64,000 nt of DNA from Eledone cirrhosa (lineage: Eukaryota): positions 39,122,001 through 39,186,000 of the forward strand of contig OZ024743.1 in NCBI GenBank assembly GCA_964016885.1. Direction: 5' to 3'. The translations under genes and the position numbers were made by a program. The notes beneath the pieces were generated by a model that was given only the letters and a program-made list of their open reading frames with translations, had not been told where the DNA came from and searched no databases. Below are positions 43,901 through 46,236 of this stretch, one piece after another. How positions within the stretch are numbered: position 1 is the stretch's first letter; each line of letters starts with the position of its first letter.

Positions 43901-44781
43901 TTTTATGCAGCCAGCAATATATTTCAACTTATGACTATTATTAAAAACTCGAAAAACGTGTTAAGTAAAGACAGAACAAAGGAGCAATATATACACTCTG
44001 CCAATCTCAGCCGTTCACAGCACTGAATGAAAAAAAAAGTATTTTACATATAATTTCAATGATGATAATTATATATACACACACACACACACACACACAC
44101 ACACACACACACACACACACACACACACACACACACATGTATATATATTTATATATTTATATATATATATATATATATATATATATATATATATATGCAT
44201 GTGTGTGTGCGTGTGTGTGTGTGTTATTTACTTACAATGTTTCATCCTCCCCTTTTGGCAGGTATCATCATATACCTCAGCCTGGGGTGAACAATAACTA
44301 GAATAAGGTATTGGGATACAAAGGCGGGCGGAGGGAGAATGTGTCAACATTCCATTTATTCATGTTATTCAACATATATATATATATATATCTACATAGC
44401 TTATCTGCATTTACTGCGGTTATGAGAAGCGGTTCTTATTCGGGTACAACTTCTGATTTAGCCTAAGAAAATATCTATATGCGTGTGTAATTTATACAAG
44501 CATGTATTTATTTTTTTATTTTCAATTGAGTTCTTAAACAGGTTGGATTGATAATGTTTTCAAAAAAAACTAGTTAACCCGCGTGTATATTATATATTTT
44601 CCTCATTTCGTGGATCGTGGGTTGTCTCCCCTTCCCGCTTCGTGTCGCTATGATACTTCCTCAGTCAAAAACTGCTGGAATTTCAAATTTGGCTGTCATT
44701 CGAGGTGAGAGAGATCAACTTTACGGACATGATTTTTGACAGCGGTAAGAAATTGTTTTCTTATATCAATGTTTAACAGGC

Positions 44782-44907
44782 TTCCACTGATGATTTATAA
44801 GTGCCCACCTAAATATATTCTTACATGAATATATATTATGCTTCTACATAAACTGGAAACATTCTCCCAAACTTGTAGAAAACTTATAATGAAACAATTG
44901 TTTGGAA
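44782..44907 (+). ncRNA. Type I hammerhead ribozyme with branched stem II
   Basis: ttcca-CTGATGA-t-ttataag-[two hairpins]-cttataa-t-GAAA-caattg-TT-tggaa. Confidence 0.8.
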
Positions 44908-45789
44908 AGAGAGATATACTTTAACTTTAATTATATCTCATAAAATAATACAACTGGTTTTTCCACATTATACATATTGTTAGCACTCCAAACACGTAAA
45001 TTGGGTTTATATTTCAATATAACCTAATGTTTCTTGAGTGAGATGGTTACCAGTCAGAGTTTAGCTTTAAACTATCTCTGTTATTTTATTAAATATTTAC
45101 TCTTGATTGGCCAGAGGTGTTTATTTCCAGGTACCTTATGAATTTGACTTACCGTATTTATTACTGTTGTGAAATATTGTGGCTTTTTTTGGTTGTAACT
45201 TCTCTGTTTTTTAGCCTAGGAAAATATATATATATGCCTACGTATATAATTACATGCATATATGTATTTATTTTCTTTTATTAATTGAGTTCTTTACACG
45301 AGGAATTAATATTGGTTTTGAAATAGCTAATTAACCCGCGTGTGTTTTATATTTTACTCTTGATAATTCGGCTGGAGATTTATATTCCCATTTGACCATT
45401 ATAGCATAACTTTCTGCATTTACTGCGGTTATGAGAAGCGGTTCTTATTCGGGTACAACTTCTGATTTAGCCTAAGAAAATATCTATATGTGTCTGTAAT
45501 TTATACAAGCATATATTTATTTTTTTATTTTCAATTAAGTTCTTAAACACGTCGGATTGATAATGTTTTCAAAAAAACTAATTAACCCGCGTGTATATTA
45601 TTTTTTTTCCTCATTTCCTGGATCTTGGGTTGTCTCCCCTTCCCGCTTCGTGTCGCTATGATACTTCCTCAGTCAAAAACCGCTGGAATTTCAAATTTGG
45701 AGGTCATTCGAGGTGAGAGAGAGCAACTTTACGGACATGATTTTTGACAGCGGTAAGAAATTGTTTTCTTATATCAATGTTTAACGGGC

Positions 45790-45915
45790 TTCCACTGATG
45801 ATTTATAAGCGCCGACCTAAATATATTGTTACATGAATATATATTAGGCTTCTACATAAACTGGAAACATTCTCCCAAACTTGTAGAAAACTTATAATGA
45901 AACAATTGTTTGGAA
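45790..45915 (+). ncRNA. Type I hammerhead ribozyme with branched stem II (second unit)
   Basis: Core and stems identical to 44782-44907, 1008 nt downstream. Confidence 0.8.
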
Positions 45916-46236
45916 AGAGAGATATACTTTAACTGTAATTATATCTCATAAAATAATACAACTGGTTTTTCCACATTATACATATTGTTAGCACCCCAAA
46001 CACTTAAATTGGGTTTGTATTTTAATATAACCTAATGGTTGTTGAGTGAGATGGTTACCAGTCAGAGTTTAGCTTTAAAATATCTCTGTTATTGTATTAA
46101 ATATATGTATATATATATATATATATATATATATATATATATATATATATATATATATATATATATATATATATATATATATATATATATATATATATAT
46201 ATATATATTTATAAATATATATGTATATATATATAG

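Follow-up and report, generated by a model that had tools for sequence, protein, structure and literature searches.

What kind of element places two predicted self-cleaving ribozymes in a non-coding repeat between runs of TA, and how was it copied? This question is raised by a 64,000-nt stretch of Eledone cirrhosa DNA (assembly GCA_964016885.1, contig OZ024743.1, positions 39,122,001 to 39,186,000; referred to here as the window, in whose coordinates positions are given), which at 44395-46103, on the plus strand, contains 1.7 copies of a 1008-bp repeat with two type I hammerhead cores. The direct repeat exhibits a spacing of 1008-1009, an identity of 95-96% and a longest ATG-initiated open reading frame (ORF) of 48 aa, in agreement with a first-pass annotation, made from the sequence alone, which had described a ~1008-bp non-coding unit repeated 1.7 times between TA runs. 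The GC content is 32% at 44001-46000. In its natural phase, the unit starts at 45100, such that the element consists, in order, of (TA)n, a 5'-truncated unit (44395-45099), a full unit (45100-46103) and (TA)n. The explanation considered most probable (roughly 70%) is that it represents a 5'-truncated, 1.7-unit insertion of a non-autonomous retrozyme, whose hammerhead-cut, likely circular ~1-kb monomer was likely copied by the reverse transcriptase (RT)/GIY-YIG protein borrowed from a Penelope-like element (PLE).

A DNA search of the E. cirrhosa genome returned 2,310 candidates, of which 39 were scored, and exact matches to a 25-nt half of the ribozyme and to the 3'-end motif numbered 2,220 and 1,043 genome-wide, respectively, compared with none for either reversed control. 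Because these 2,220 matches lie genome-wide, the tandem is not a local duplication of a single-copy unit, the outcome that the first-pass annotation had named as fatal to its proposal. The loci sampled comprised the 38 best-matching ones, 60 stretches at the first listed ribozyme matches and 40 at 3'-end matches; in the ribozyme-picked set, which was selected without regard to the 3' end, 58 loci were usable, the element having run off the stretch in two. One common 3' unit position was observed in 56 of these 58 loci, 54 of which run into (TA)n, and in 43 a (TA)n run of at least four repeats was present no more than 25 nt from the 5' end. The 5' ends were scattered all round the unit, with copies spanning 0.04-4.6 units; more than one unit was found at 16 of the 58 loci, and most copies comprised less than one. 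Target duplications of 18-36 nt were detected in 4 of 137 loci. Cut-to-cut distances were 970-1039 in 53 of 56 cases and 730-749 in three, the ~1000-nt and ~740-nt unit classes differing by a diverged ~255-nt duplication that is carried by all units of a locus. The family is high-copy, dispersed, often multi-unit and ORF-less, as the proposed retrozyme would be, and its fixed 3' end, 5' truncation and 18-36-nt duplications indicate, at the sequence level, a spread by retrotransposition. The fixed 3' end, the scattered 5' ends and the long target duplications also argue against a DNA-level satellite or rolling-circle DNA element with a functionless, relic hammerhead match; tandem arrays of up to 4.6 units would suit such an element, which, given also the ribozyme constraint, compensatory changes, folding and truncation hot spot described below, is highly improbable.

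It had alternatively been suggested that the tandem is a pseudo-long terminal repeat (pseudo-LTR) of a PLE, and the unit could be that of an unsampled autonomous PLE, its copies being ordinary 5'-truncated PLE ends. PLEs are indeed very abundant in this genome (15,766 and 16,512 candidates), and the proportions of the ribozyme, with a helix II of 7-8 bp, a helix I of 4-5 bp and a palindromic stem III, are of the PLE type (PMC4209133, excerpt). However, the unit was joined to a PLE ORF in none of 139 loci, each with 3.5-4.5 kb of upstream flank, and the nearest same-strand PLE-like fragments lie at least 450 nt from the unit, the three closest being located behind microsatellites. Full units are, moreover, preceded by another unit, up to 4.6 units in all, and an LTR-internal-LTR layout was absent among the loci analysed. 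A pseudo-LTR is thus rated as improbable, and the non-autonomous retrozyme is retained as the preferred explanation.

A circular monomer that is read more than once predicts that the units of one insertion share alleles. Divergence was 1.7% between units of one locus, compared with 3.8% between loci, and no unit was closer than the sibling in 33 of 59 loci; in 51, the sibling ranked within the top 5%. In 47 loci with a partial and a full unit, used since local duplication is least likely there, minor subfamily alleles (seen in at least five loci) occurred in both units in 318 of 390 cases, compared with 5% (highest 15%) for shuffled pairs; three-unit arrays of the L035 type were set aside as possible local duplications. 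Furthermore, 27 alleles private to one locus occurred in both units of these partial-plus-full loci, and shared alleles were interspersed among differences rather than clustered in tracts. Since both units carry the same subfamily alleles, each insertion is likely to derive from one monomer, and the allele sharing likely corresponds to the prediction for a circle.

Copying from linear templates only would represent another route, in which array read-through RNA with a (UA)n tail would prime target-primed reverse transcription like a short interspersed nuclear element (SINE), and the hammerhead would trim the 5' end only, as hepatitis delta virus (HDV) ribozymes reportedly do for R2. Copies longer than a unit would then be remade by an RT jump from the 5' end to the monomer 3' end, or by local duplication. 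The 3' end fixed at (TA)n agrees with this route, as do the local duplications that occur (L035), but no position-specific alleles were observed between sister loci: divergence was 3.73% for terminal-terminal, 3.67% for internal-internal and 3.72% for cross comparisons, and the order of shared unit-to-unit differences was the same in 40 cases and reversed in 45. The locus-private alleles common to the two units, including those of loci with a partial upstream unit, point in the same direction. End-to-end RT jumps usually leave scars, as seen in work on R2, and the cut-site junction, intact in 150 of 150 aligned copies (many of them picked on that motif), therefore also speaks against linear templates.

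Further evidence for the preferred explanation comes from the 5' ends. The predicted cut lies at unit position 811/812, and among 53 consecutive 3'-end loci, eight begin at unit positions 815-830 and none at 761-811 of the terminal unit; 11 of 45 5' ends fell within a 53-nt interval, at a p of about 0.001 for an interval picked after seeing the data. Genome-wide, (TA)5 joined at unit position 823, which lies 11 nt 3' of the cut and constitutes the first TA microhomology beyond it, gave 137 matches versus 1,702 for the intact sequence (7.4%). A control junction at unit position 719, where the microhomology is longer, gave 10 versus 952 (1.0%), corresponding to an odds ratio of 7.7 for position 823, and a control at unit position 926 gave 10 junction matches, with no direct denominator. 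The 137 truncations at 823 are not the offspring of one master, as they span several subfamily alleles. The excess of 5' ends beside the predicted cut is a possible genomic footprint of the ribozyme, and the peak fits both RT run-off at the 5' end generated by the cut and RT stalling at the folded ribozyme.

As annotated at first pass, each unit encodes a complete hammerhead: the CTGATGA cores begin at 44787 and 45795, and GAAA-CAATTG-TT/TGGAA sets the predicted cuts after 44902 and 45910. The 97 nt that separate A9 from G12 comprise the 7-bp stem II, with a U·U mismatch at its base, and the junction from which hairpins A and B emerge, which bears out the stem II said to open into two hairpins. 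The earlier description of the core and stem II stands, except that it omitted the mismatch at the base of stem II, where U10.1·U11.1 (92 of 96 locus-level counts) takes the place of a purine-pyrimidine pair; the same U·U is a tolerated variant in axolotl HHR_Amex2 (PMC7229834, excerpt). Within the core (C3-A9, G12-A15.1, U16.1 and H17), every position but N7 was conserved in 148-150 of 150 aligned copies, H17 being U in all 150, with conservation of the 3' half inflated because most loci after the first 39 were chosen by an exact 25-nt match. In the same alignment, stem I comprises 4-5 bp, stem II 7 bp above the U·U and stem III an A-U plus a C-G pair; stem positions were 92-100% paired, compared with 76% for the outermost stem I pair. 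Judged from these copies, the ribozyme possesses the core of a type I hammerhead and its stems I-III can form, with the open end in stem I. An Rfam scan nevertheless yielded no hammerhead match at E≤1, only TA-repeat artefacts.

Constraint on the ribozyme was evident among inherited variants, of which 10 were located in 60 ribozyme columns, compared with 125 in 191 upstream and 54 in 186 downstream columns, whereas private variants were spread about evenly over the three regions. Hairpin A is maintained across subfamilies, with changes from C-G to A-U and from G-C via G·U to A-U at two positions; as these represent few independent events, the compensatory support is only moderate. Hairpin B exhibits hardly any variation among copies. 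The claim that core and stems are identical between the two window copies proved too strong, since each carries a different break in hairpin A: in copy 1, TTATG replaces TTAGG and disrupts the outer part of the 13-bp hairpin, and in copy 2, ATATATTG disrupts its atattc/gaatat pair. GGGC, located 5' of stem I, is complementary to GCCC in loop II (91-97% paired), with no compensatory changes seen; this pairing may form a pseudoknot as described in PMC3088659 or an inhibitory brake hairpin. Stem III offers 2 bp alone, and its 8-nt palindrome is predicted to form an 8-bp duplex between two ribozymes (-6.4 kcal/mol), for which reason cleavage as a dimer fits; a dimeric hammerhead via the palindromic stem III is plausible. 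Folding of the circular monomer, compared with 25 shuffles each, gave z = -8.4 for a young copy (L035) and -4.6 for the window copy, such that folding is strong, but less so in the old copy.

Regarding a possible helper, the genome was shown to contain RT-GIY-YIG PLEs of 784 aa, which are very young and have a CxxC linker, as well as a 775-aa PLE family. Of 20 copies of the latter, 15 carry a minimal hammerhead in their 3' region, with U·U at the foot of stem II and an NUU cut site. In three of these 15 copies, the hammerhead is positioned ~122 nt before the (TA)n end, a layout that mirrors that of the element (cut, 193 nt, (TA)n). Mobilisation by a PLE is inferred because target, layout and ribozyme type agree. 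A 3' fragment of a very young 784-aa PLE is also present in the window (13440-13922, plus strand), with many near-identical copies and inverted and tandem arrays elsewhere, and a possible hammerhead core occurs once per unit in one 784-aa PLE array (L200).

In the proposed cycle, hammerheads would cut multi-unit transcripts into the ~1-kb monomer, which is likely circularised, with the weak palindromic stem III likely favouring cleavage as a dimer. A PLE endonuclease would nick (TA)n, the nicked strand would prime at an AU-rich site that follows the cut by 193 nt, and the RT would roll round the monomer and stop at a variable point, after which the cDNA end would be joined to (TA)n through microhomology. 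Templates that are cut (linear), or RT stalling at the ribozyme, would produce the pile-up just 3' of the cut.

Several observations weigh against this interpretation, in addition to the inflated core conservation mentioned above. Stops just 3' of the cut were also found in second-round units (2 of 8). Such stops in first- and second-round units agree with linear templates and are explained less simply by a single circle, and partly cut linear multimers therefore stay in play; linear templates as the only route are nonetheless considered unlikely. Neighbouring units of the L035 array differ by 0.1% and 3.6%, and some three-unit arrays look locally duplicated. The two window units differ by 4.3% (rank 40 of 82) and are no closer than random copies. 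The active ribozyme fold is marginal in silico: it lies 2.5 kcal/mol above the predicted minimum in the young L035 copy, is not in the ensemble of the window monomer, where stems I and II have near-zero probability, and is displaced by the GGGC/GCCC pairing in two subfamilies, again with near-zero probability for both stems. None of the sampled PLEs was homologous to the unit (queries: the 784-aa ORF and three PLE-type sequences), and the post-cut tail of the unit produced no significant alignment with the PLE tail, 56 of 300 shuffles scoring as well.

The window copy itself is old and partly decayed. It carries 23 minor variants private to this locus, and its insertion reads as old because its unit-to-unit differences are mostly private; being also predicted to misfold, it does not represent the active family well. 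Its features are listed in Table 1.

Table 1. Coordinates of the kilobase retrozyme-like element and its parts in the window
Feature	Position	Strand	Basis
5' (TA)n flank, part of the target microsatellite	44375..44392	.	sequence
Upstream unit, 5'-truncated, from unit position ~306	44395..45099	+	
Sequence 5' of stem I, here CAGGC but (U)GGGC in the majority of copies; the latter complements GCCC(A), with which loop II begins	44777..44781	+	
Type I hammerhead 1, predicted cut after 44902	44782..44907	+	
Parts of hammerhead 1: stem I 44782-86/44903-07, CUGAUGA 44787-93, U·U 44794/44890, stem II 44795-801/44883-89, GAAA 44891-94, palindromic stem III			
Hairpin A within the stem II domain (13 bp where intact); its outer pair is disrupted in this copy	44808..44840	+	
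Hairpin B within the stem II domain, with 7 bp and 3 bp on either side of an internal loop	44842..44880	+	
Predicted cut-to-cut monomer, 1008 nt, likely circularised	44903..45910	+	inference
Full terminal unit in natural phase	45100..46103	+	
Diverged tandem duplication inside the unit, ~255 nt, 71-78% alike; not in the ~740-nt subfamily	45100..45620	+	
Type I hammerhead 2, core 45795, predicted cut after 45910, inner closing pair of hairpin A broken	45790..45915	+	
ATATA, first TA microhomology 3' of the cut; family hot spot of 5' truncation	45922..45926	+	137 junction vs 1,702 intact matches
Fixed 3' end motif, likely priming site, 193 nt past the cut	46081..46103	+	
3' (TA)n tract, common to an opposite-strand hammerhead element	46104..46235	.	

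Within the unit, each half of the internal duplication has retained ACCCGCGTG (45335-45342 and 45585-45592), the halves being otherwise 75% alike; this motif is a possible promoter element. Contigs from two of four sequencing runs of unspecified type (one study) cover the unit with a depth that rises toward the 3' end and are uninformative on expression. A search of a metagenome collection returned no match to the element, and a 219-aa frame at 43367-44026, which has no link to the element, gave no match in a Pfam search.

Other hammerhead elements are present nearby. The one at 46240-46400 (minus strand, core 46344-46367) is arranged tail to tail with the kilobase element across a common (TA)n tract, and the same neighbour was also found at L044 and L036. 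Members of a 448-bp tandem hammerhead family, in which stem II likewise starts from U·U, are located at 52675-53566 (minus strand, core 52776-52801) and at 16002-16027 (minus strand); the family often adjoins the kilobase element at other loci, and by visual inspection its 3' end is similar to the one of the 784-aa PLE. A solo minimal hammerhead with a canonical G-C stem II lies at 18561-18606 (plus strand), just before a (TA)n run. Elsewhere, a second high-copy family (1,433 candidates; L109:1296-1410 and L207-L236) consists of short solo elements whose hammerhead has the same CAATTG stem III as the kilobase element, with a 58-nt stem II domain, a common 5' start ~30 nt upstream and frequent inverted pairs; it was considered as support for the pseudoknot but provided none, since the bases that covary in it are consistent with an internal hairpin. 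Stem II inserts of 47-51 nt were noted in further hammerhead-like motifs at L034:3541, L060:1846 (minus strand) and L086:2637, and at least ten hammerhead families were seen in less than 1 Mb of flanks. The window further contains a broken Ty3/Gypsy-type retrotransposon (6136-9307, minus strand), a broken APE-RT long interspersed nuclear element (29350-32316, plus strand) and a near-perfect local duplication with 1738-bp spacing, microsatellites included (47496-50968), which represents a recent duplication or an assembly artefact.

The outline of this biology is as expected, the ribozyme architecture is unusual, and the circle-and-PLE model becomes directly testable. For animal retrozymes, that model stands as a hypothesis, and no motif indicating a helper is evident according to a 2020 review (PMC7761336, excerpt). 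The present family provides testable genomic traces for each step, i.e. the likely priming site in (TA)n, allele sharing that points to a monomer, the truncation peak at the predicted cut, and PLEs with the same ribozyme quirks and target. A further-reaching joint proposal, put forward tentatively and at well under even odds, is that a class of hammerheads with a structured, branched ~100-nt stem II, overlooked by standard descriptors, and with a GGGC/GCCC cutting-rate switch powers an RNA circle of about a kilobase, and that every stage of its cycle can be read from thousands of copies in the genome: priming at a single site, passage through a monomer, and in vivo cutting, marked by the peak of truncations. 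If true, PLEs at present described as devoid of ribozymes might carry hammerheads with comparably large inserts. A natural 1-kb self-circularising RNA would, in addition, represent a scaffold for circular RNA expression. Since the 97-nt domain escapes Rfam as well as descriptors with 7-17-nt spacers (PMC8557442, excerpt), branched stem II hammerheads may be under-counted. In the main texts searched, neither a hammerhead with a branched stem II in a retrozyme nor an allele or truncation analysis of this type was found; the alignments of Lünse et al. 2017 may contain hammerheads of this architecture.

Among known systems, the PLE pseudo-LTR hammerheads cited above (Cervera and de la Peña 2014, PMC4209133, excerpt) have the same stem proportions, and the (TA)n-targeting Neptune/Naiad PLEs (Craig et al. 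2021, PMC8557442, excerpt) share 5' truncation, partial tandems and microsatellite targets. Unlike these, the unit lacks an RT/GIY-YIG ORF, carries U·U in place of G10.1-C11.1 and two hairpins in loop II, and has no homology to the sampled PLEs. In pseudoknotted hammerheads (Perreault et al. 2011, PMC3088659, excerpt), loop II is likewise complementary, over 4-5 bp, to the sequence preceding stem I, whereas here no compensatory change was found and the same pairs can form a plain, core-blocking hairpin. Schistosoma SMalpha/W-elements and newt satellite 2 are likewise hammerhead-bearing SINE-like or satellite repeats with a very short stem III, but their units are much smaller and their ribozymes compact (PMC8490949 and PMC6765202, excerpts). 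The closest agreement in overall organisation is with metazoan non-LTR retrozymes (Cervera and de la Peña 2020, PMC7229834, excerpt; Li et al. 2026, bioRxiv 10.64898/2026.07.22.740005), which also consist of non-coding tandem units with one type I hammerhead each, a GC content below 50%, a self-paired predicted circle, long target-site duplications when present (>4 bp) and co-occurring PLEs; axolotl HHR_Amex2 combines the U·U at the base of helix II with a 2-bp helix III (PMC7229834, excerpt). Their hammerheads are of the canonical 6-bp/4-bp loop-loop form, compared with PLE proportions and a 97-nt branched stem II domain here, and the present copies differ in being mostly dispersed and 5'-truncated, with one fixed 3' end in (TA)n that marks a priming site. 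Their units usually measure 150-450 nt, compared with ~1000 nt here and ~740 in an older subfamily, so that the size called unusually large at first pass is indeed above the usual range, but only mildly exceptional: vertebrate consensus units of 51-972 bp were obtained in a search limited to 1000 bp (bioRxiv 10.64898/2026.07.22.740005), and circles of '150 to >1000 nt' are mentioned (PMC7229834, excerpt). These features place the family with the metazoan non-LTR retrozymes, as a member with a PLE-type ribozyme at the top of the reported size range.
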